A DNA stretch of 64,000 nucleotides, from positions 123,380,001 to 123,444,000 of the forward strand of contig OZ024743.1 of assembly GCA_964016885.1 (NCBI GenBank), written 5' to 3'. This stretch comes from Eledone cirrhosa. Lineage: Eukaryota. The notes under the pieces were generated by a model. It was not told where the DNA came from and did no database searches. It saw only the letters and a program-made list of their open reading frames with translations. Shown in pieces: positions 24,974 through 63,375 of the stretch (positions within the stretch are counted from its first letter, which is position 1; the number at the start of each line of letters is the position of its first letter). A program made the translations under genes and the position numbers.

Positions 24974-25107
24974 GATATGTGTGTAACCTTGACTTCGTTC
25001 TTGCTTCTACACACACACACACGCACACATGCACACACACACACACACATACACGCAGCACACGTACACACGCACACACGCGCACGCACACACATGCATA
25101 CACGCAT

Positions 25108-25138
<31 letters not shown>

Positions 25139-25823
25139 CATATACACATATATATAGCGAGAGATATAGAGGGAGGGAGAGAGGCGTGGGACACGTAGAT
25201 AGATAGCATTTATGTTATAAAATCTGCTTGCTTCATACTTATGTAGAATATCCTAATACTAATTAGACAACTAAATAATACATAAGCGAACAAACAAGTA
25301 TGCATCTTTGTTTTATAAGAACGCATGACCACGTAGGAGTGATTTCATGTGTGAAAATAAGCTGCCGGTGAAAGGAATATTTGATTTGTTACTTATGTGA
25401 CTTATAGCCTTCGGGTTAGCTATTTAAGCTTTCAATTCACAGATTAAATTCTAAGATTAAATCAGTTAAGAGCAATTATAAGTTATTTCTAGATTGATCT
25501 CATTAAAACTCTTATGCTCTTCAGAGTTTATTCAGATGGCTGAATTAAATGCTATCTGTTTTCCGTTACGTGTCTTTACCGAAGCTGACATCATTTTTCT
25601 TTTATTGTTTAGTCTGGAAGGGAAGACCAATATCCATGAATTTTTCTAAGCATCAAAACTGGAGACGTGGTCCGAATGCTTTCAACAGATTGAACTCTGC
25701 TTTAGACATTTAGGGCTAGGTGGGCGGGTTAAGCCTACATCTCATGTACGATTTTTATTAAGTCATTCTTACTCTGTGGTTTCCGACTAACTAACACATC
25801 ATTTGTTGTTGTTATTGTTTAGT

Positions 25824-26037
25824 AGCGTATTGGCAGTATCGGTAGGGCGTCGGCAACATGCTTTGCAGCATAGAGTTACGGCCCTTTATGATCTAAGTTC
25901 AAATCCCGCCGAGGTTAACTTTGCCTTTAATCCTTACGGGGTCGATAAAATAAAGTACCAGTAGTGCACTGGGGTCGATTTAATCGACTTTCCCCTTCCC
26001 CAAAATATGCTGGCCTTGTGCCTATATAAGAAACCAT
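25824..26037 (+). mobile_element. SINE long form; a diverged related copy follows at ~26225-26375
   Basis: Same head and core plus ggggtcgatttaatcgactttccccttcccc; flanked by ttRttgtttag direct repeats. Confidence 0.85.
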
Positions 26038-27122
26038 TGTTGTTTAGCCCCAGATCACTCTTGCTTAAGTAGACCTTTGATGAAATGATTCACAGTAGTG
26101 ACCATCGCATTCGTTTTCTATGTGCAGTACCAGTGGAGTACTGGTATAATCAACTTTCCTGTTGCTCCCAACATTTTTGACCCGTGCTTAAATTAGAAAC
26201 CCGTATTAGGGAAAAAAAATGAGGCAGCAAATTGGCAGAGTGAGAACGTCGGATAGAATGCTTTGCGTTATTTATTTCGGCTCTCTGCTCTCTGAGTTTA
26301 AATCCCGCCTAGGTCAACTTTGCCTTTCATCCGTTTGAGCGCGATAAAAAGTACGTCTTGTGCTGGGGTCGATTCTTTCTCTATATCTCTTTCTCACTCC
26401 CATTTCCTCACTCTCTTTCTATTTCTCTGGAAGTAATCTGTTATATTCAAACCTGGAGAGGAGATGGGCTCCGCCAGATTTTAAAATGTTCAAGAAATGC
26501 TCTATATTAATACATCGCCCCTACGACTCCCTCATAAGTTACGAGACGATGAAATAAAATGAATTAGAAAAAGTAAACAACAAATAAATCAATATTCTAA
26601 AATAAAATTTCAAGAGTAATTTCCTTTACGCAGGATTACATCCTATTGCATGTATAACCCAGCAATTGAACTATTTATGTTCTCTACTCATACAGTTACA
26701 TCTGTAAGTGAATAGAGTTAAAGATTTTTTTAAGGCCCTGCAAGAGGTTAATATAGTTAACGACTAGTTTATTATCATTATAACCCCAATCTAGTGGACT
26801 AAGGAATGATATAGGCGCTGCAACTCATACACAATGAACAGTTTTATAAGAATAGTACTGGCTTAAATTTCGTCGTTATATATTTATTGTCTCTGTATAT
26901 GAAAATATAGAGGTCGATTAAAAAAAAATCCCTTTATTATGCTGTTTCTCTAGATTGTATCTATAGAAGGTTAATACCCACCGCCATTATTTTTGTGCAT
27001 TCTCTTTAATTGTTTTCATTATTATTATTATTGTTGTTATTTTTACTATTATTGTTGTTTTTTAAAATATTCAGATATATGTGTTTTACGATCAAGATAC
27101 GCATCTTTAAAATATGTATATT

Positions 27123-27177
<55 letters not shown>

Positions 27178-27257
27178 GTGTGTGCGTTTGTGGATGCATA
27201 CATCTATATATGTGTGTGTATGCGTGAGTGTGTTTGTGTGTGAATACACACACACAC

Positions 27258-27296
<39 letters not shown>

Positions 27297-27667
27297 CAGA
27301 GAGATAGAGAGCGGGGGGGGGGAGAAAGAAAGAAAGAGAATCTGAGAAATATAGAAAGTGAATTAATATGTTGGAGGAGATATGAGAGATGAGCCAGAAG
27401 GAGACTTGTTCATGTGCATGTCGAATGAAATAAAGAGAATGAGTTTACCGAAGGAAAACGTTTCGGTAGGAAAGTAATTTATTGTGAAAACTTAATATGT
27501 TATGGCTGTATCGGTTCCGGTAAAAATCGCTTCAAGCTAAAATATATTGACTTATTTATTTTATAAAAAACGTTCTTTCGAAATGAAAAACGCGTTAGTA
27601 TCAGATAATGTAAAACACTTCTAGCAGAAGGATTGACAAAACTGAAGACTTTGGCATACTTTCAAAC

Positions 27668-27756
<89 letters not shown>

Positions 27757-28224
27757 ATTTTTTATTATACTTATTCAAACCGGAAAGGAGATGAAGATTT
27801 AACTGATTTGAGAGGTATCTTACTGTCTATATATCAAAATTTCAATCTATCTACTATGATAAATGTGGTTATAAATATATATCTTCATTATATATGTATG
27901 TATTTATAGAGTTATGTATGTAAGTATACAGAGAGAGAGGGGGGGGTTGCTTGGAATGCACATATATATTTTATTTTATAATTAAATCTGTATATACTTA
28001 CATAAATATGATATGCGTGTGTATGTATTGAAATGATGTATTTACAACAGAAATGTTAGTTTAACAAGTCCTAAGTTACAATAAAAATAAAGTGTTGAAA
28101 TCATAGTTTTCTGAATTCAAATTATCATTTGAACGAATGATGTTTCAGTACCCAGTCATCGGAAGAAGGACTTTCTTTTCTTCAATGGTGTTCGTGCATA
28201 CCCTTGGGTTATGAGTGACAAAAT

Positions 28225-28465
28225 ACTATTGTGAGTTTAGAATAACGTTACTTGATAGGATGCGTAGCTCGGGACTCAAAGCGTCACTCCAGGTAGAGCT
28301 GCTACTTCTCCATATTGTGATATCACAGCTCCAACATTTCGGACATGTTGTTGGAATGGCTAAGGGTCGATGGACAGATTTTACGGGTCAAGCCAATTGG
28401 CAGGATACGCAGATGTAGACCACGAGCATGAAGGTGGAATAACATCAATGAGCCCAGTTAATCTT
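28225..28465 (+). mobile_element. Degraded RTE-like 3' fragment; same family at 34230-34745(+) and 57080-57355(-)
   Basis: ESWVMTERIQTAEMGFLRRVFGVTLLD...LRYYGLVVRM...RPRDRPR in ORF 34121-34612; homologous decayed sequence here. Confidence 0.65.
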
Positions 28466-29597
28466 GATTGAGAATATATTAATATACTAGAAAGAGGAGT
28501 TTGAAATTCAATTGGTTTTTATTGTAAATAATCAATGGATTGATGAATTCAAGTAAAAGTGGTTAAAAGAATTATGCGGATTGTTGGTTGAAAAGAAATG
28601 ACAATGGTACTCGATTAAAAATTGTTGTGGTGGTAGATTTGGGAAATTTGAAACTAAATTTAGTTGGGTTAAAATATATAGCTATGTCTAAAGTTTTAAC
28701 GAAGTAGTTGAAGGAGATCCAAAGTAATAAGAATAAATAAGTGGTAAAAAAAAATGTTTAATGAACTATAGTGTTCGTAATTAAATTAAGATGATTATCA
28801 ATGTGATTGTGTGCATGAGCGGAATGTATATTTTTCAATGATAATTAAATTAACACTGGAAAATGAAAGATTCATACACAGGAGATATGATAATAATTAA
28901 AGAAAAATAGATAGAAATTTATGTAAATTCACTGTTATTGGAAGAGAAGTTGGAAAAACTGTCGAAAGACATTACCGAAATTATGTTTACTTGCAAATAA
29001 AAAACAAATTTGTCAAACACATTATTGGTAACAATCCACGCATTGTAAATGTGACAGGAACAGACTGAAACATTTACAATTACTGCTCGCAAAGAGGAAA
29101 CGTTTATCCTATTATCGGTGTACCCACATGACATACTACACTGGGTGGGGTAGAAAATAGAGTAAAGAGAGAGAGATTAATGGATTTTTGCAAGCTGAAG
29201 AAAATAAAAAAATATTCAGGAAGCAGTCATTAATAATTTGGATACAAAACCAAAGCAAGCGGGATTTTGAGCTATTAAAAATCGTGAAATTCGTCGAATC
29301 AGGGAGGAAATATTGAATTGGATCGTAAAAGGTGTGCCAGAATGCTCTAAAACAAGTGTCAAATTAATATCATCAGAATCTACCGACAAGATCAAGAGCC
29401 AGGAAAAGGGGACTGGTACTAAAGCAGAAAGTGGGAAACGTTCCTAAAAAAATATTTATTATAAAGATATGGCTGTGTTGTTCACTCCCAGGTGTGGCAA
29501 TATGGGTGAATGTCTTCTACTATAGCCCCGGAGTGACCAATGCTTTGTTACCGAAATTTGATTGACAGACACCGGGGAAGCCCGCCGTGTATGTGTG

Positions 29598-29625
<28 letters not shown>

Positions 29626-29631
<6 letters not shown>

Positions 29632-30005
29632 AGTTAAAACAATGAAATAAAAAAATCAAGTCATTAGAGATATACTTCACTGCTTTACGATCATTTCTAG
29701 ATGGTGATAATACATTGTATCTATACTCAGTTATTGATCTATGTAAGTTTACAAACTATCAGATAGAGAGAATATTTACTTACATGCATATCAACAGCTG
29801 TTTTCAAAAAAGATTAATGGATTTTTTGAAAACAGCTGTTGATATGCATGTAAGTAAATATTCTCTCTATCTGATAGTTTGTAAACTTACATAGATCAAT
29901 AACTGAGTATAGATACAATGTATTATCACCATCTAGAAACGATCGTAAAGCAGTGAAGTATATCTCTAATGACTTGATTTTTTATTTCATTGTTTTAACT
30001 TATAT
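29626..30005. repeat. Near-perfect palindrome with ~183-bp arms and an ~11-nt loop
   Basis: Arms are reverse complements with about 1-2 differences; centre near 29815. Confidence 0.95.
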
Positions 30006-30361
30006 CATGACTCTGTTTTCCTTTTAATATTTTATTAACATTTTCAACATATGGATTACATTGAGTTCTTCATACAGAATAGACCCCACAACTTACAGTG
30101 GATACCTCTGTGTATATATATATATGTGTATATACACAGTGAGAGAGACACAGCGATTGGGGGTTACCAATTTAAACTAGCAAGTCCTAATGTGAGGAAA
30201 CGGGATTATAGCGAATATTTCCTATAACCCCGCTACTTTTGAAAATACATGTATATATGTGTGTATCTAAGTATGTGTGAATATATGTGCGTGTGTATAT
30301 ATATGTGTGTATATATGTGTGTGTGTATATATATATATATATATGTATGTATGTGTTGCCT

Positions 30362-30915
30362 TGCCTATTTTAATGCGGCCTCCAAAGCCCACAGTGGTGC
30401 CTGGCTCTATATCTTGCCCTCCTTCTCCACTGGCACGCAGCTGGATAACAATAGCCTGCGCATCGGCGTTTCCTTGAGGCTGGGCCTCCGGAACTGCGAG
30501 CCACGCAAATATCGCTGTGGATCCACCGTGGATTCTTTCGGCCTCCACCCGCTTTCCTGTCTCCACAGTGTCGGCCGTCTTCCACGCCATGCTGCCCTCA
30601 ATGAGCTCATAAAGCATTGCTTGGACACTGCAGGCTTTCCTTTCCTTCCCAGCTCTAGTCGGTGGGGCTGAACCAAGGGGACGGAAAAAGGCCAAATGGT
30701 ATGACTATCTTCCCGTTCCGCGGGACACTTTCTCCAGCCGCAACCTGGTGCAGTCTGCGAGTAACCCAGGTTCTGCTGCACGTCGGGCTGAGGAGGCCAA
30801 ACACTCCAAGTACCGGTCGCTCTCCGACAGGTTTGGGGTCGTACCCTTGGCAGTGGAGACTTCTGGTGTCCTCGGCCCTATGTCTACCTCCCTACTCACC
30901 ACCATAGGCGCTGAG
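30362..30915 (+). mobile_element. CRE-clade RLE retrotransposon 3' fragment
   Basis: SGAWLYILP...LRLGL...CG..VDSFGLHPLSC...GRLPRH, GKRPNG, AEEAKHSKY, VPLAVETSGVLG. Confidence 0.8.
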
Positions 30916-31240
30916 CTGGCGAGTTGGAATGGCTTTTCCACGCGTTTCCCTTGCCGTCCTCCGGGGAAACGCCTTCTCCATTCTGTCCGCCGGGTCTGTG
31001 AGGAGGCCACCAATATGATTGACTTGTCATTTTATCAGTCAACTGTTGCTGTCGTTAACAATGCATTTATCTTGTAGCATATTTCTTCTTCTTCTTCTTC
31101 TTCTTCTTCTTCTTCTTCTTCTTCTTCTTCTTCTTCTTCTTCTTCTTCTTCTTCTTCTATTGCTCCCTGCTGGCCCCTTAACCTTGTTCTGGTGACGCAG
31201 CTTGATGGAGCATGCAACTATTGATATACTCTTGTTTATA

Positions 31241-31292
31241 GGCTCTGATGATTCCTGCCTTAGGGTACGGATGAAACACTGTTCTGTTAGCT
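31241..31292 (+). ncRNA. Type I hammerhead ribozyme candidate followed by AATAAA
   Basis: ggct-CTGATGA-ttcc...ggat-GAAAca..tGTT-agct-aataaa. Confidence 0.6.
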
Positions 31293-31337
31293 AATAAAAC
31301 AATGTATCTCTAAGCACTTTTTGGTTATTCCTAAACC

Positions 31338-31424
<87 letters not shown>

Positions 31425-31766
31425 TTTTTATTTTCTATTTGTGTATTTTAATTCATTAACCCCTTTACACTTCATCACCCTGCATGCTTGTATTACTCCT
31501 TAATGCTTACTTCAAACAATGTGCCAACAGACGTCAGGCAGACGGGTCGACACGGATGGATACGTACGAAAACCTGACCGAGATGGCGATAATAGCCGTC
31601 AAATTATTGGAAACCCCCAGCTGTGAGCTGACCGAAAACAAATCAACAAGTGAATACGGTGAGAGACCTCTATGACAGAATTTGTGGTAACATATAAGTA
31701 GGGAATCGGGTTAATATTCAACCACACTCAGAGAGTGAGTCTACACAAACACACACACACACACCA

Positions 31767-31852
<86 letters not shown>

Positions 31853-31950
31853 ATACTTGGGGAGGGTCATATTTGCGTAATATTGCCAGAATTCATAACA
31901 GAACACACTCACTGTTTGGTTGGTTTTCGCTTTTCGCTTCTGTGTCTTTT

Positions 31951-32311
31951 ATATCGGTTAATTTAATTTATTCGGTCCTCAATGTTGCCATTGACTGACC
32001 AACGGTCAAAAATACAGATACAATATAGACACAAACACATATATATAGTCTATCAAAGTTCTTTCGTTGCACATCTGCAACATCGTCAGTGGTACTATTG
32101 TTTCCTCCCGTTGCATTGTATTTTCTACGCCATCTTTTCAATAGCACCACTGACGATGTTGCAGATGTGCAACGAAAGATGTTGCAGATGTGCAACGAAA
32201 GAACTTTGATAGACTATATATATGTGTTTGTGTCTATATTGTATCTGTATTTTTGACCGTTGGTTAGTCAATGGCAACATTGAGGACCGAATAAATTAAA
32301 TTAACCGATAT
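31951..32311. repeat. Inverted repeat with ~150-bp arms, each carrying a hammerhead core
   Basis: CTGACGA-tgttgcagatgtgcaac-GAAAgaactt on minus at 32053-32092 and on plus from 32148 (with a 23-nt duplication). Confidence 0.9.
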
Positions 32312-32473
32312 ATATATATATTGTTATGCTGTGGGAGGGTCATGTTGCCAATAAGAAACACACGCACCAGTTGCTTTCACTTCAATTTATTATAAATTAA
32401 ATTTATAAATTTAGGAATTTATAAATTTCCGGTTGGTTGGTTGGTTCCACAACCAGACGATTGTTCATATATT

Positions 32474-32516
32474 GTCAAAGTTCTTTCGTCACACATTATG
32501 TGACCTCTTCAGTGAC
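32474..32516 (-). ncRNA. Minimal type I hammerhead ribozyme candidate
   Basis: gtca-CTGAAGA-ggtcaca taatg tgtgac-GAAAg aa CTT-tgac. Confidence 0.7.
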
Positions 32517-32579
32517 TGGGGATTCTATTCTTTGTTTTTGTGCCTCTCCTTTGTTCTGTCATACGCCATCTTTTTTTTG

Positions 32580-32743
32580 ACACACAAGGCCAGCAATTAC
32601 CCAGTGCATTACTGGTACTTTATTTTATCGACCCCGTAATGATGAAAGGCAAAGTTAACCTCGGCGGGATTTGAACTCAGACCATAAAAGGCCGTAACTC
32701 TTTGCTGCATAGCATGGCGTCCGACCCTCTACCGTTACTGCCA
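32580..32743 (-). mobile_element. SINE short form
   Basis: Same head, core and tail as other copies. Confidence 0.85.
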
Positions 32744-32745
32744 CA

Positions 32746-32916
32746 GGGTCTGTGGTTTTTCTCACATCTGGTTGGTCTTTGAATGTTACTTGTTTTATAT
32801 GGAAAAAAGTGGCTGTAAACGCCAGGTTTTTAGAGAAGTAATTTGATTGGTTGGTCAATAATTATAAAACAAATAACATTCAAAGACCAACCAGATGTGA
32901 GAAAAACCACAGACCC
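32746..32916. repeat. Inverted repeat with ~55-bp arms and a ~60-bp spacer
   Basis: gggtctgtggtttttctcacatctggttggtctttgaatgtta is mirrored. Confidence 0.9.
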
Positions 32917-32931
32917 TCCATCTCAACTCTA

Positions 32932-32967
32932 CTTTTGAAAAGCAGAAAAACTGCGAAACCGGTAAAG
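32932..32967 (+). ncRNA. Minimal hammerhead candidate with U3-A8 core
   Basis: ctt-TTGAAAA-gcag aaaaa ctgc-GAAAc cg GTA-aag. Confidence 0.6.
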
Positions 32968-33098
32968 GAACCAAATAAATATATATATATTTTTTAAATA
33001 AGACTCCAGTTGCATTTTCGATTTCATCTTTTTTTCTTTATACTTTCACTCGTGTAGGACACCTCGGTTATTTTTCATTTTGTAAAAAAAAACCTCAC

Positions 33099-33194
<96 letters not shown>

Positions 33195-33205
33195 GTGTGT
33201 GTGTA

Positions 33206-33269
<64 letters not shown>

Positions 33270-34229
33270 ACTAGATAGTGAAATAGAACTTCCACTGTTT
33301 ATAGATAAAGCTAATTTTCAAAACAACGCTAAGCTCTATAACTCTCTCTCTATATATATAGTAATAATAATAAATATGAAGACTAAAATCCAAAGAGGGC
33401 TCGATAAGGATAAATATATATCAAATATATAAGAACCATAGAGCAAATATTTATTAAAATAACAGATTAAAGTTTAAGCAAAGAATCGCTGCTTTCACCC
33501 TTAACGGGATCTACTGAAAGTTAAAAAAATCAATCTGTGACAGCAGAAGTAAATATTTCGAAAAACGTTGCAGCCGAAGGAAAACAGGAAGACGATACTT
33601 TGGTTCGTGAAGTCGTTCCCTGGCAATGAACGGAAAAAAGCGGAGATAATACGTCGTTATGTGGAGCGATAAGAACAAATACACGCAAAGACAAAACCAC
33701 GTTTATGGTATAAATGGAGTCATAGACTAATATTCTATTTAGGAAACCGAATGATTCTCGGCTTCGGAGTTAAGATTAATGTAAATAAATTAGTAGAACG
33801 AAAACGACAGAGTTTATTAAAATCATAAAAGTAATAATAAATATATGCATACACACATCTATAAACACACACCATGCATGCATATACATGCACGTACACA
33901 TAAACACACGTACACGTGCGTAAACCCACGCGACACATGTACCTGCACACATACGAACGTATACATCAAATACACATATAAAAATATATGTGTGTGTATA
34001 CGTACAATTATATAAACGTATATAAATATACACCCATACATACGTATATAACGCGCATACACACATACTTACAGGTAAATACACATATGTTCACCAAACG
34101 TACATGTTCACCAAAACTCAATGTACACATATACACACCTTACATACGTGCAAACACGCACACACAAAAATACGAAAATCACATATAGAAGCAGCTGGAG
34201 AAGTTCGAGTATCATGAGTGATGGAATGC

Positions 34230-34745
34230 AGGAGGCTGAATTAAGTGCAAACCAGCTTCAGTATTTAATAATCAGAAGAAGGGAGGTAGGTGTAAAAGCC
34301 AAACTCGGTGTCTTCCTGGTATTTCTGCCAACCCTTACTGAGGGTCATGAATCTTGGGTAATGACCGAAAGAATACAAACAGCAGAAATGGGGTTTCTCA
34401 GAAGGGTATTTGGAGTAACGTTACTCGATAAAGGGCATGACTCAGAGGTCAGAAAGTCACTCATGTTTGAGCCGCTACATCTCCGGATGGAGAGATTACA
34501 GCTCCGATACTATGGGCTTGTAGTTAGAATGTCTCAGGAAAGAATCGCTGGACAGATTTTACCGGCAAAACCATCCAGCAAAAGACCCAGAGATAGACCC
34601 CGAGCAAGATAGTTAGATAACTGGTCACGCTTTGGGATCCAGCTGGATCAGTTAGAGATGTTTACTTCTAACAGACTAACTGGAAAGAGTGTTTGAGGAG
34701 GACTCTGCACCCACGACCTTCTCAGAAATGAGTGGGCGAAGAAGA
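34230..34745 (+). mobile_element. RTE-clade LINE 3' fragment
   Basis: RTE C-terminal motifs in ORF 34121-34612; ends in gaagaaga. Confidence 0.75.
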
Positions 34746-36469
34746 TATTGTCAATTTACTTTTCTATTTACATATCATATATATAAGCATATATATTTGC
34801 GTATAAAAGCAATACGCACACTACAAATGCTAGCAGAAAAACCGCCTGAAGGGCGGTTTTTCTGCTAGTTTACTGTAAATATGGGTTCTTTACGTGAAGA
34901 GACTTTTGAATGGATATGTAGACAAAGTTATTATAGTTTGAGATATAGTAAAACAAGATAGGACAAAATAGAACGTTAGGTAATGTGTTAGATAAATGGA
35001 GAAATAAATGAAGAGATGGATATATAAAATATATAAAGAAGATATACGATAAAGTGAAATAACTTGAGATGGGGTTAAATGGGGAAGATGTGGAAAATAT
35101 ATGATTAAAATACAAGAATAAAAGGGCACCAAATGTGAGAAAAAAATTAAATAGAGTTAAATGAGTTAAAAAGAGATTGAATAAATTAGATTTTATTTTT
35201 TTTTCATTTCATCTACTTTAACCTGTTTCCTCCGATCATTTCACCTTTTATTCATTTTGTTCGGAGTTGATCTGCTTTTATCTGTTTCACCTATAACTGA
35301 GGCAGGTTTGTCGGTATGGGTTCATACTTTCCCCCTCTGCTGACTTTGTACATCTCACTTAAATTCTGAAAATTTTATAACCAACCAATCACGAGAGATG
35401 CACTATGTTTATAGCCATGATTCTTAGCTCTAAAATGCTTCTGTTCACCAAGAAATAAATAGATATCACAATGGAAAAAAAAAAGGTTAATCGTCTTATG
35501 CCGCAGTAGTAAAAGACTTTACACATGTTTTGTTAGGTTGCAATATTAAATTCATCTCAACTTATTGGTATACATTTTTCAGAACGGATACTGCCAAACT
35601 GACTTGTCCTAAATACACAGAGACGAAGTATTTTAAGAGATTCACGATGCGGACCAAAAAAAAAATCAATGGTTTGTACCGTGTCAGCTGCTCTGTATAA
35701 TTTCAGGATCAAGAAAGTTGCTTATAGCTCACCTAATGCACATTACTGGAAATAGATAGCATAAGAAGATACATCTGAGCAATACGTCAATACGTAACTA
35801 AAATCAATGTCTATTGACAAGTAACTCACTAAATTCAGTAGAGTTTTATCCAAATCTAACATGGTTAATTACACCTCAGAATAATTAAGCTAATTACCCA
35901 TTGAGTGTTTAATCTAATTAAGGCAATCGAAGCAATTTATTGTATAAGTTAAGCAATTAATTCTATTTACAACACTTGCATCATGAGATGAATATATATT
36001 CGTTGAAGGAATATATTTGTATTATCTTGTCTTGCCAATCTACGATCTCCATAGAATAGAAGAAAAACTTCTGTTGAGTTGTATTTTCGATTTTTAATAT
36101 ATGGAGCTATTCCCTAACCTATGTAGCCTTTCCACAATTCTTAGGAATTTAATATTCTAGGGAAATGTATTATTGTCACAACTTCTCTATCTTAAACCTT
36201 GACGTAAATAGTTCTTAATTCTCATTTATGAATATATGTGCTTATGAATCAAATTTAGTAAATCTTTCGATGTATTGCACTTGCGTGAATAAATCAAATA
36301 ATGTATGATTGATTCGTATCAAAAGAATGGCCATTTAGAAAGTTAATGCATAGTAATTGTATTGCCTAACTGCTAGTTTAGGCTGATATGAGTTCTCATA
36401 AGGTAACACATAAGCGCGTCAGCGTGTGTGTTTGTGTGCGTGTGTGTGTGTGTGCGCGCGCGCGTGCGT

Positions 36470-36544
<75 letters not shown>

Positions 36545-37602
36545 TGCATGTATGTGTGCTCGTGTGTTTAACAACTGATATAGAAAGATGCAAGTGAAAG
36601 TAAGAATGATGAGTGGGAGAAACAGGAAGGAAGAGAAGAGTTTACAGATTATAATGATTATATAGTGACAAATGCCGAGTGAAAGTAAGAGAGTAATATT
36701 GAAGACAACAAGTCATTGACTTAGTTTCGGTAATATTACATATATCTATTTTTCATCACATGTCGGCATTATTTGAGGCCATTTAATTCTAGCTAGATGT
36801 GCTCGGCAAGCTTCTATTTGGTTACAAGATCGATAGCTTTTGTTTCCATGTCAATTTGACACAGCTATAATGAATTCAATATGGTCCAGATAAAAAGATT
36901 CGCTTTCAATAATGAGATTGTTAAAACTCTCCAATCTTCCACTGAAGAAAAACGAATTGTTTGTCAAGTTGATTCATAATTTGTATCTAAGACAAACGAG
37001 TTTAACACTTCTAGCAAAATATCAGCTCATTTATGCAAAAAATAAAGATTTGTAACATAAGCAGTGAATTAAACGTTCCCACCTTTACAAAGAGGTAAGT
37101 AAAACATTTTCAACTGAGAATCGAAAGAGTTGCAACATCAAACACGGAAAATATTAACTTTATGTTAATGGCATTCAATTTTCTCACCCTATATGTATTA
37201 AGAGTACGCTCTGAACATCTCTCAACGAGATCTTAACTCATAACAAAGTCATTTTATTTTGTTTATCATAAAATGTAATAGCTTATTCCACAGGCATAAC
37301 ACTTAAAAACCGTTAAAGAGATGAAATCGAATTTTGCTAGTTTTCTCTTTTTATAGGACAGTACTGGCTTGAGAACGATGCAATTATTCTAGCAATTGTA
37401 ACTAACCCGCATAAAAAATCAACATATTCGTCCACATTAATTATCTATAAAGAAGGGTTGTTTCTTTAATAAAAATAACCATTTCGTAACAACAACGAAA
37501 CAGTTAGAGAGCATTTCTAGATTTAAACGATTTACTATTTTCTTGTTTTGAAATGATCGTATCACTATCTAGTAGTAAAACATTATTACACTAATAAATA
37601 AA

Positions 37603-37791
37603 GGGCGGTGGATTGGCAGTATCGGTAGAGGGTCGGACGCCATGCTTTGACGTATTGGGTTACGGCCCTTGCCATTCTGAGTTCAAATCCCGCCGAGGTT
37701 AACTTTGCCTTTCATCCTTACGGGGTCGATAAAATAAAGTACCAGTAATACACTGGGTAATTGCTGGCCTTGTGCCAAAAAAGTAGAAACA
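37603..37791 (+). mobile_element. SINE short form with 18-bp TSD
   Basis: attattacactaataaat at 37582-37599 and 37792-37809. Confidence 0.9.
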
Positions 37792-38084
37792 ATTATTACA
37801 CTAATAAATGATGTCATTATAGGCACTCATGTGTCATTCGGTGCCCCTTTGAAATATTTATGAAACAGGAGTTAATTGATCAGCCTTTTATTGACAACAT
37901 ATTGTAATGTTGTGTTCATTTGTTTAACTTTCCTTCAAAAATATAGTAGAGAGGATTATAAACGTGGGGAGAGAGGAATGCATAGATATATAAAGTGGTT
38001 AAGGAAAGTAAGGGAGATAATATGGAATTTAGAAAAGTAGTCTTTTAAAACTTCTATGGAGAACAAATTCACTCAGTTTGATAT

Positions 38085-39170
38085 TTTTGATCTTTTTCCC
38101 TTGATATCTAATGCCCTTTTAGAGCTCTACAATTCGCTAGCAGATACCCAGACATATATATGGACTTTCAAACTATATCCCACACTAGAAAACCCTTTTT
38201 AACAAATGAGCAGTTTGTGAGAATGTCAGATACCACGGATTTATTTGATGTATACATTGAACCATTAGACATCACAGATGTCTTCGATTTACTGGGGGTT
38301 ATACATTCGAGACACTCTAAAAAGTAAATTCCAAGACACGGGTCTGTATCGAAACAATGGCCTGGCTTAACGAGCCATAAAAGCAGCCATAACTTCATAG
38401 CCACCTTTAACGCCCAACCTCATTAGCATCAACCTTCTAGATTTTACTTTCAACCTAAACATACATACATATGAACATCACCACAAAGTCAATGAACAGC
38501 TCAACACAGGAATTGGGGCCACCCACCCAGAATTTCCAAACATAACAGCATATGCAAAAGCGTATGTAACCTATCCTTTGATAAGGACATCTTCGATAGA
38601 GCAGTTCCATACTACAGTAACAGCCTAGCCCACAGTGACTTTAAAGATAACAATTTCTACTGCTCTGACCAATACCCAAGAACTTTAAATACGAGGAATA
38701 CAACTACTCTAATTCTCTTTAAATGTTAGGACCAACGCAAGAAATAAATTTCTAGCTCTAATAGACAATTATTTCCCCTCAGAACACAAATACTGTAAGA
38801 TCTTTAAAAGACATGCAAAATTGGATATTCCTGTACCAGAAATGTAAAACCTTACATCAACAAAATCTCCTGAGCTCCCTCATACCAGGCTGCTTACGCA
38901 GAAAGTCAGAGGCGTGCCCCATGGACTAGCGTTGCAATATCGCCACCATGATATACGTGGCTAACGTTACGCATGTGCAGCCAAACCAACCGCAATATGT
39001 CAGAACAGAACATGCCTGGGAATATATGAAGGTCGATTATTAAACCGCCTCTTAAACCACGAGATGACTTTCAGATACCAGGAGAAAAGAGCAAACACGA
39101 AATCTACAAGCTACATATGAACACTTAAAGACAGTAGCACTAATTTATTAATGAAATTGAAGATCGTTTT
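38085..39170 (+). mobile_element. Heavily decayed Naiad-type PLE (RT to GIY-YIG)
   Basis: Hand translation gives FLDFTFNL, KFLALIDNYFPSEHKYCKIF and IGYSCT, matching the element at 21700-23806. Confidence 0.6.
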
Positions 39171-39687
39171 ATCTATTTTATTTATTTAATTATTTTACTC
39201 CATCCACTGTTAGCACTGACTTAACTAATATAATACTCAGTCAGCTTGCAAGTTCTGCAAAACCCCATTATATATAAGTGTGGCAGTCACGGGTTGGGTG
39301 GCCAATTTCATGAATATATCCTGAATGTCTATAACACCAACTGAATCCCCGAATCAGTACTCTGTCGTTTTTATTCGCCAAGGCATAAAACTAACCAACA
39401 CTCTATATGTTACATCCGCAAATACAAGGTAAAGTGTCCCATCCACAAACTAGAAACCTCCGCTCTATAAGATAGATTAGCTTGTGTAGATGTCATGAGT
39501 GTGTATATCAGCATGTAACTAGTAGTTTGTATACTCCTAAATACTTGCATATGTCTCTATACACATCTATGTGGTTTTTGTAACCCTGTAATTGAGGGGA
39601 TTCGTGAATGCATAAACGACTGGCCAAATTTCGACAATAGTAAATTTAGGATATATCTCGACACCATATAGCTCGATACTCTAGCTG

Positions 39688-39875
39688 CGGTCGATTGGCA
39701 GTGTCGGTAGAAGGTCGGACGCCATGCTTTGACGCATAGAGTTACGGCCCTTACCATTTTGTGTTCAAATGCCGCCGAGGTTAACTTTGCCTTTCATCCT
39801 TACGGGGTCGATAAAATAAAGTACCAGTAATGCACTGGGTAATTGCTGGCCTTGTGCCAAAAGTAGAAACAATCA
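39688..39875 (+). mobile_element. SINE short form with 13-bp TSD
   Basis: atactctagctgc on both flanks. Confidence 0.88.
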
Positions 39876-40018
39876 TACTCTAGCTGCATCTTTGCCTTGC
39901 TTGATACACCAGCTATTTCTTCGTCCTCTTTCTTCTTCCTAGCGCACCCCTCCTTTGTTAGTCTAACACCTGACTTTGTGTCTCAAACTTTTTCTCCTAC
40001 ATTTTTCTTTCACACTTT

Positions 40019-63263: not shown

Positions 63264-63375
63264 TATTAAATAAATGGAAACTATATTTATAAAACCATAT
63301 TTATTATATTATATATATTTCAAGGGTACCAAAAAACTTTGGTACGCTTTCATCAGATAAAATACAAAGTGTGTT

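Follow-up and report, generated by a model that had tools for sequence, protein, structure and literature searches.

What kind of element places hammerhead motifs on both strands of a single hairpin, next to a second unit that carries a further motif of the same type? The question is raised by region 31848-32575 of a 64,000 nt stretch of the Eledone cirrhosa genome (contig OZ024743.1, positions 123,380,001 to 123,444,000), which we refer to as the window. The region contains two related units whose plus-strand ends read TTGTTAT..GGGAGGGTCAT and TACGCCATCTTTT, and a minus-strand core is present in each of them (at 32089 and 32512), as the original prediction stated. We consider it highly probable (roughly 0.93) that the units are 5'-truncated 3' pLTRs of two protein-coding lineages of Penelope-like elements (PLEs), likely of the Neptune type, which likely entered one and the same TA microsatellite in succession. 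An inverted, 5'-truncated copy, usual for PLEs, forms the fold-back, and the whole is an ordinary arrangement for such elements. The features of the region, as we read them, are as follows.

31775..31848, no strand: (TA)37; unit 1 merges into this run at its 3' end; the likely insertion target (56/57 relatives end in a TA run)
31849..32138, minus: unit 1, from PLE lineage 1, a 5'-truncated 3' pLTR lacking the optional tail; full-length matches are 93-98% identical
31847..31870, minus: first codons of the PLE ORF (MTLPKYNN) within the pLTR end; this is the conserved gggagggtcat motif
32052..32093, minus: hammerhead motif of unit 1, minimal type I (sequence match; cut site predicted)
32139..32312, plus: inverted copy of unit 1, more deeply 5'-truncated (from arm comparison)
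32146..32210, plus: hammerhead motif of the inverted copy, with helix II lengthened by a 23 nt tandem duplication (from descriptor scan and repeat analysis)
32308..32321, no strand: (TA)7 run common to the 3' ends of inverted unit 1 and unit 2
32321..32579, minus: unit 2, a 5'-truncated 3' pLTR of PLE lineage 2, without the tail; full-length matches are 93-98% identical
At 32343, minus: ORF start of unit 2 (MTLPQHNN)
32474..32516, minus: hammerhead motif of unit 2, minimal type I (sequence match; cut site predicted)

The arms of the fold-back (31950-32095 and 32167-32312; 146 nt, 96% complementary) and the plus-strand core at 32150 bear out the expectation that unit 1 is duplicated in inversion with hammerheads on both strands of the hairpin, although only about 170 of its 293 nt are inverted. 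The plus-strand hammerhead was correctly anticipated, but a 23 nt tandem duplication inside its helix II (at 32155-32202) had been missed; with the duplication the motif is still foldable as a lengthened helix II. The inverted copy stops early at an internal GATATA, running into the TA run, and locus L038 ends at the same site; priming there or a later deletion may account for the early stop. The two units had been taken for diverged tandem copies of one element, but they align in 151 of 311 columns and their ORFs are 65% identical, and by these comparisons they are two PLE lineages and not repeats of a single element.

The 5' end of unit 2 abuts a 161 nt repeat (32583-32743), likely a SINE, of which at least six other copies with 89-96% identity are present in the window. 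Two further fold-backs at 29650-29983 (162 nt arms, 99%) and 32745-32917 (about 75 nt arms) lie near TA-rich or repeat DNA and lack the unit hammerhead. The latter recurs in L081, and both are possibly inverted stubs of other elements.

The coding element

Genome searches gave 560 candidates for unit 1 and 504 for unit 2, 40 of each being scored. After the window's own two copies and one overlap were dropped, 57 loci were kept, 29 of them relatives of unit 1 and 28 of unit 2. All but one of these end in a TA run, in the hammerhead sense, and a tail of 45-60 nt is present in 28 and absent from 29, as it is from both window copies. Upstream of the units the family sequence continues for 84 to more than 1,300 nt, with variable 5' ends, and becomes an ORF. 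The C-terminus of an RT plus GIY-YIG ORF lies directly upstream in 17 of these 57 closest copies (6/29 for unit 1, 11/28 for unit 2), and the remaining 40 have no ORF sequence in this position. A second sample, comprising 28 loci chosen by genome position and not by similarity, has a TA end in 23, an inverted partner in 12, and the ORF end within 1.5 kb upstream in 11. The ORF found directly upstream in 17/57 copies argues that the units are the ends of protein-coding PLEs, and not members of a non-coding ribozyme-bearing mobile family as originally proposed; the PLE pLTRs that had been named as a known parallel were, however, well chosen, since the units are themselves most probably pLTR ends and their motifs fit minimal type I hammerheads.

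For the exact subfamilies of the window we saw no full-length copy that is unbroken: L061, which is 95% identical to unit 1, contains the greater part of an RT-EN ORF, but this is frameshifted. Open frames of 1171-1240 aa occur in younger sister subfamilies, whose pLTRs share 82-87% identity with those of the window; frames of this length with a long Asn-rich N-terminal insert are carried by the very young PLE copies L097-L099 and L117 (G000 C2, C11 and C3). L098 and L099 have a pLTR-ORF-pLTR organization with direct pLTRs, L099 has an inverted pLTR as well, and L180 is a full-length head-to-tail tandem with a period of 4.15 kb. The ORF begins MTLP (MTLPKYNN in unit 1) at an ATG within the shared gggagggtcat end, and the tail consists of the subsequent codons. 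The same ATG opens the 1229-aa ORF of L099 and a 552-aa frame in L180. A Gypsy LTR origin, suggested by the TGTTAT end, was rejected because this end reads, in reverse complement, as the start of the PLE ORF.

The family is an EN+ PLE with a telomerase-like RT and, at the C-terminus, a GIY-YIG domain in one ORF, as seen in the relatives and not in the window stub. Residues 430-1229 match the Pfam families RVT_1 (E=2e-4) and then GIY-YIG (E=5e-4), both below the curated cut-offs, and the full-length ORF proteins gave no Pfam match. For an AlphaFold model of the ORF (pLDDT 87), the six best structure matches are telomerase RTs; a PDB search by single sequence yielded nothing useful, and one by profile yielded weak matches to bacterial defence RTs. 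The best homolog is an RT-domain protein of Octopus vulgaris (67%), and a search with part of this homolog found no closer third lineage (best 63-64%). Translations of both lineages contain a C-X4-C-X2-C linker between RT and EN, together with a CCHH motif in the translations that places two Cys between GIY and YIG (VVYSIRC..C..YIGET..H..H). Searching with the ORF C-terminus gave 37,000-38,600 first-look candidates, and many copies are 99-100% identical there.

Because of the linker and the CCHH pattern, the family is likely Neptune or Nematis by the criteria set out in PMC8557442, the text of which describes a CX2-5CxxC RT-EN linker as marking Neptune and as also present in Nematis; TA targeting favours Neptune. 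Features of the Neptune clade found here are the linker, in both lineages, and microsatellite (TA) ends. Those of EN+ PLEs are pLTRs that flank the ORF and hold its start, the inverted 5'-truncated copy, the optional 3' tail and the CCHH motif.

Hammerhead motifs

A descriptor scan of the whole 64-kb window locates the minus-strand cores at 32089 and 32512 and the plus-strand core at 32150. The unit-1 core reads CTGACGA-T-GTTGCA/TGCAAC-GAAA-GAACTT; its conserved box (32089-32083) is followed by a bulged U (32082), a 6-bp helix II, GAAA (32065-32062) and a 2-bp helix III, and its helix I is weak, with 2 bp and then a C-A mismatch, the predicted cut being between 32056 and 32055. The unit-2 core reads CTGAAGA-G-GTCACA/TGTGAC-GAAA-GAACTT, with the box at 32512-32506, a bulged G, a 6-7-bp helix II, GAAA at 32487-32484, a 4-bp helix I (GUCA/UGAC) and a predicted cut between 32478 and 32477. 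Helix I has 4-5 bp in lineage 2, and 2 bp plus the mismatch in lineage 1. The two minus-strand cores are 423 nt apart and are identical in helix III/loop 3 (AGAACU). Features of the minimal type I hammerhead are present, including the CUGANGA and GAAA boxes, an NUH triplet, a bulge after A9, and G10.1-C11.1. By sequence the motifs thus fit the minimal hammerhead that Cervera and de la Pena (2014, PMC4209133) describe in metazoan PLEs.

The genome copy count proposed as a check places the motif well above chance: a pattern covering both unit motifs matches the 3.0-Gb genome 29,689 times (14,847 plus 14,842), compared with 0 for the reversed control. The proposed scan with hammerhead models came out the other way: Rfam returned no hammerhead family at E<=5 in 25000-40000, only chance miRNA-hairpin matches. 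Leaving the core free in the search gave 7,948 matches; among the first 100 listed, canonical cores numbered 84 (counted by eye), a share that is in line with neutral decay of dead copies. Free-energy folds of monomers and dimers gave no catalytic fold and are uninformative for helices this short.

The stem II differences between units had been interpreted as compensatory. Helix II does have two double-sided changes between the lineages, and these are real, but they mark a single lineage split. In 11 hand-picked rows, which essentially represent this two-lineage split and in which many columns are fixed by the search pattern, 93% of cells are paired and four pairs have double changes, with a covarying-pair count no better than shuffles (276/500).

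Are the motifs then decayed vestiges that cleave in no context? Such a reading, which concerns catalysis only and is compatible with a PLE origin of the units, is unlikely in our judgement, if the strongest of the alternatives. Helices I and III of lineage 1 have just 2 bp each and loop 3 is an imperfect palindrome: together with 15.2-16.2, AGAUUU, found in one subfamily, pairs fully, and AGAACU (as in the window), AGGACU and AGAGCU leave a 2x2 mismatch. Published minimal PLE hammerheads also cleave weakly, and as dimers, according to the account in PMC4209133, and for an anole element PMC11167929 describes cleavage that required protein yet was dispensable for insertion in vitro. Against this, variation among the 173 motifs of the examined loci is uneven: position 7 takes all four bases and the bulge and loop 3 also vary, whereas at the cleavage site the free base can be U, A or C but is G in 0/173, and 15.2-16.2 is G-C or G-U in 167/173, counts that reflect only a handful of independent lineages. 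The double-sided helix II changes point the same way, within the same limit.

Other hammerhead-like sequences occur in the window. A third abundant repeat (1,394 candidates, 40 scored) has its end at 31161-31335 on the plus strand, with a (TA)n terminus, an optional tail and its own hammerhead-like motif at about 31243-31305. It likely represents a further PLE family; in its window copy helix III/loop 3 contains a 5 nt duplication, and no ORF is linked to the repeat in 9 relatives. At about 30360-31080 (plus strand), decayed ORF fragments precede a (TTC)25 run and resemble the C-terminus of a restriction-endonuclease-type non-LTR element, presumably of a CRE-like family. An unrelated weak CTGATGA...GAA core (minus 63356, at about 63320-63365) runs into a TA run beside a fold-back.

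Inverted arms and circular RNAs

Inverted copies are common among the relatives, being found within 1.5 kb upstream in 35 of the 57 (33 at 85% identity or more). Among 174 motifs in 164 loci there are 13 opposite-strand pairs within 700 bp, of which 11 are head-to-head, and three same-strand pairs, one of them between the two lineages; short head-to-tail arrays are absent from this set. In 51 arm pairs the two arms have matching alleles at 182/196 and 405/430 polymorphic sites (0.93-0.94), compared with 0.82 and 0.70, respectively, for controls made up of arms from other loci. Because this sharing exceeds that of the controls, the arms usually appear to come from one source, or to have been homogenised later. 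An origin of the two arms from unrelated templates is unsupported as a rule, given the same excess; the window arms, which differ at two sites plus the duplication, are not decisive on a two-template origin.

We note that in one head-to-head pair (G000:C1:44321398, minus, and C1:44321970, plus) both arms have the same change at the catalytic G12. The RNA that was mobilised may already have been ribozyme-dead; alternatively, the arms became alike through later homogenisation.

The original prediction also foresaw a family able to yield hairpin or circular RNA, and this finds no support here. A transcript of either strand of the fold-back contains one unit-1 hammerhead plus its antisense, and partition-function folding across the fold-back gives helix II a probability of 0.0 in both unit-1 copies (on both strands) and of 0.96-0.99 in unit 2. 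The hairpin is thus predicted to sequester both unit-1 ribozymes. Production of a circle from the fold-back is disfavoured by this model, because two same-strand cuts would be needed and the unit-1 ribozymes are predicted to be blocked. Moreover, the composite of unit 1, inverted unit 1 and unit 2 is present at none of the other 57 loci examined.

It is very improbable that the short units form a non-autonomous, non-coding retrozyme-like family whose transcripts self-cleave and form circles and which PLE proteins mobilise in trans. Independent mobilisation of stubs would fit the 40/57 closest copies that have no ORF directly upstream, the unit size of 260-295 nt falls within the retrozyme range given in PMC7229834, and a 2026 preprint (bioRxiv 10.64898/2026.07.22.740005) derives animal retrozymes from pLTRs in the text available. 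However, there are no arrays and few same-strand pairs among the 174 motifs, the variable 5' ends run into the ORF, which 17/57 copies enter, and the motif is of the minimal PLE type and not the canonical retrozyme type as these are defined in PMC4209133 and PMC7229834. Non-LTR retrozymes, as characterised in PMC7229834 and the preprint (bioRxiv 10.64898/2026.07.22.740005), are head-to-tail units of 150-450 bp with canonical hammerheads and without an ORF. The units described here resemble those of both accounts in being short, of low GC, related to pLTRs and equipped with type I hammerheads, and differ from them in being dispersed, ORF-continuous and head-to-head.

Equally far-fetched is a broader speculation, that in a very young TA-targeting Neptune-type expansion (about 30,000 ends) some stubs are incipient self-propagating retrozymes and that nested ends of two lineages pair through the AGAACU helix III, cutting out hybrid circular RNAs. 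Least credible of all is a functional composite in which the unit-2 and unit-1 minus-strand ribozymes hetero-dimerise via this helix and release a piece of about 420 nt able to circularise: the spacing and identical helix III/loop 3 of the two same-strand cores and the predicted formation of the unit-2 helix II are as it would require, but the unit-1 helix II, over which the 146-bp arm pairs, has a predicted probability of 0.0 on either strand, the arms have decayed in the ordinary way and contain a duplication, and the composite does not recur at the 57 loci.

Order of events and known systems

The preferred reading, that of truncated PLE ends, suggests a sequence of events modelled on published PLE work. 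The endonuclease would nick AT-rich DNA, and the RT would start near the ORF start with synthesis often ending early, giving rise to stubs; the inverted arm would be produced along with the stub, usually from the source that also gave the stub. At this locus unit 2 may have inserted first, its 3' end lying in (TA)n, after which the unit-1 fold-back may have split the run into (TA)7 and (TA)37. This order is weakly inferred, and the reverse is possible. The hammerheads would be minimal PLE ribozymes passed down with the element; any activity would be that of dimers, or would involve the element's protein, on transcripts of a pLTR-ORF-pLTR tandem. In the window stub they would be passengers.

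The locus is best regarded as ordinary transposon debris, and the value of the family is modest. The family is recently active, as judged from its 99-100% identical C-termini and open frames of about 1,200 aa, very abundant and TA-targeting, with several hammerhead variants, and provides material for two questions about PLEs, namely the role of the hammerhead and the formation of inverted arms. We found no published description of these octopus families in the literature (Repbase, Dfam and the supplements of the cited papers lay outside this scope), and the supplements of PMC4209133 may already list cephalopod motifs.

The layout described here agrees with those reported in PMC8557442, PMC3846280 and PMC4209133, as far as their accounts extend, and the hammerhead type does likewise. 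The EN+ PLEs of PMC8557442, as presented there, differ from this family, whose ORF is about 1,230 aa long and includes an Asn-rich N-terminal insert, whose tail measures 45-60 nt where theirs is 30-40 nt, and which has about 30,000 motif copies. Penelope of the rotifer Adineta vaga is similar, on the description in PMC3846280, in that the pLTR holds the first ORF codons and the tail extends them, in its head-to-head inverted pLTR and in its Asn-rich ORF inserts, although here the Asn-rich insert is upstream of RT, unlike in A. vaga; that element is described as having low copy number and short target duplications, whereas here there are tens of thousands of copies in (TA)n. The motifs share with the PLE hammerheads detailed in PMC4209133 an unpaired base between A9 and G10.1, the G10.1-C11.1 pair, a long helix II and a tiny helix III, a short helix I (2 bp in D. 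virilis and 4-5 bp in Schistosoma), and dual motifs 100-700 bp apart on opposite strands. Unlike those described in that paper, loop 3 is self-complementary here in one subfamily only, and dimers of the others would contain tandem A-A or G-A mismatches.
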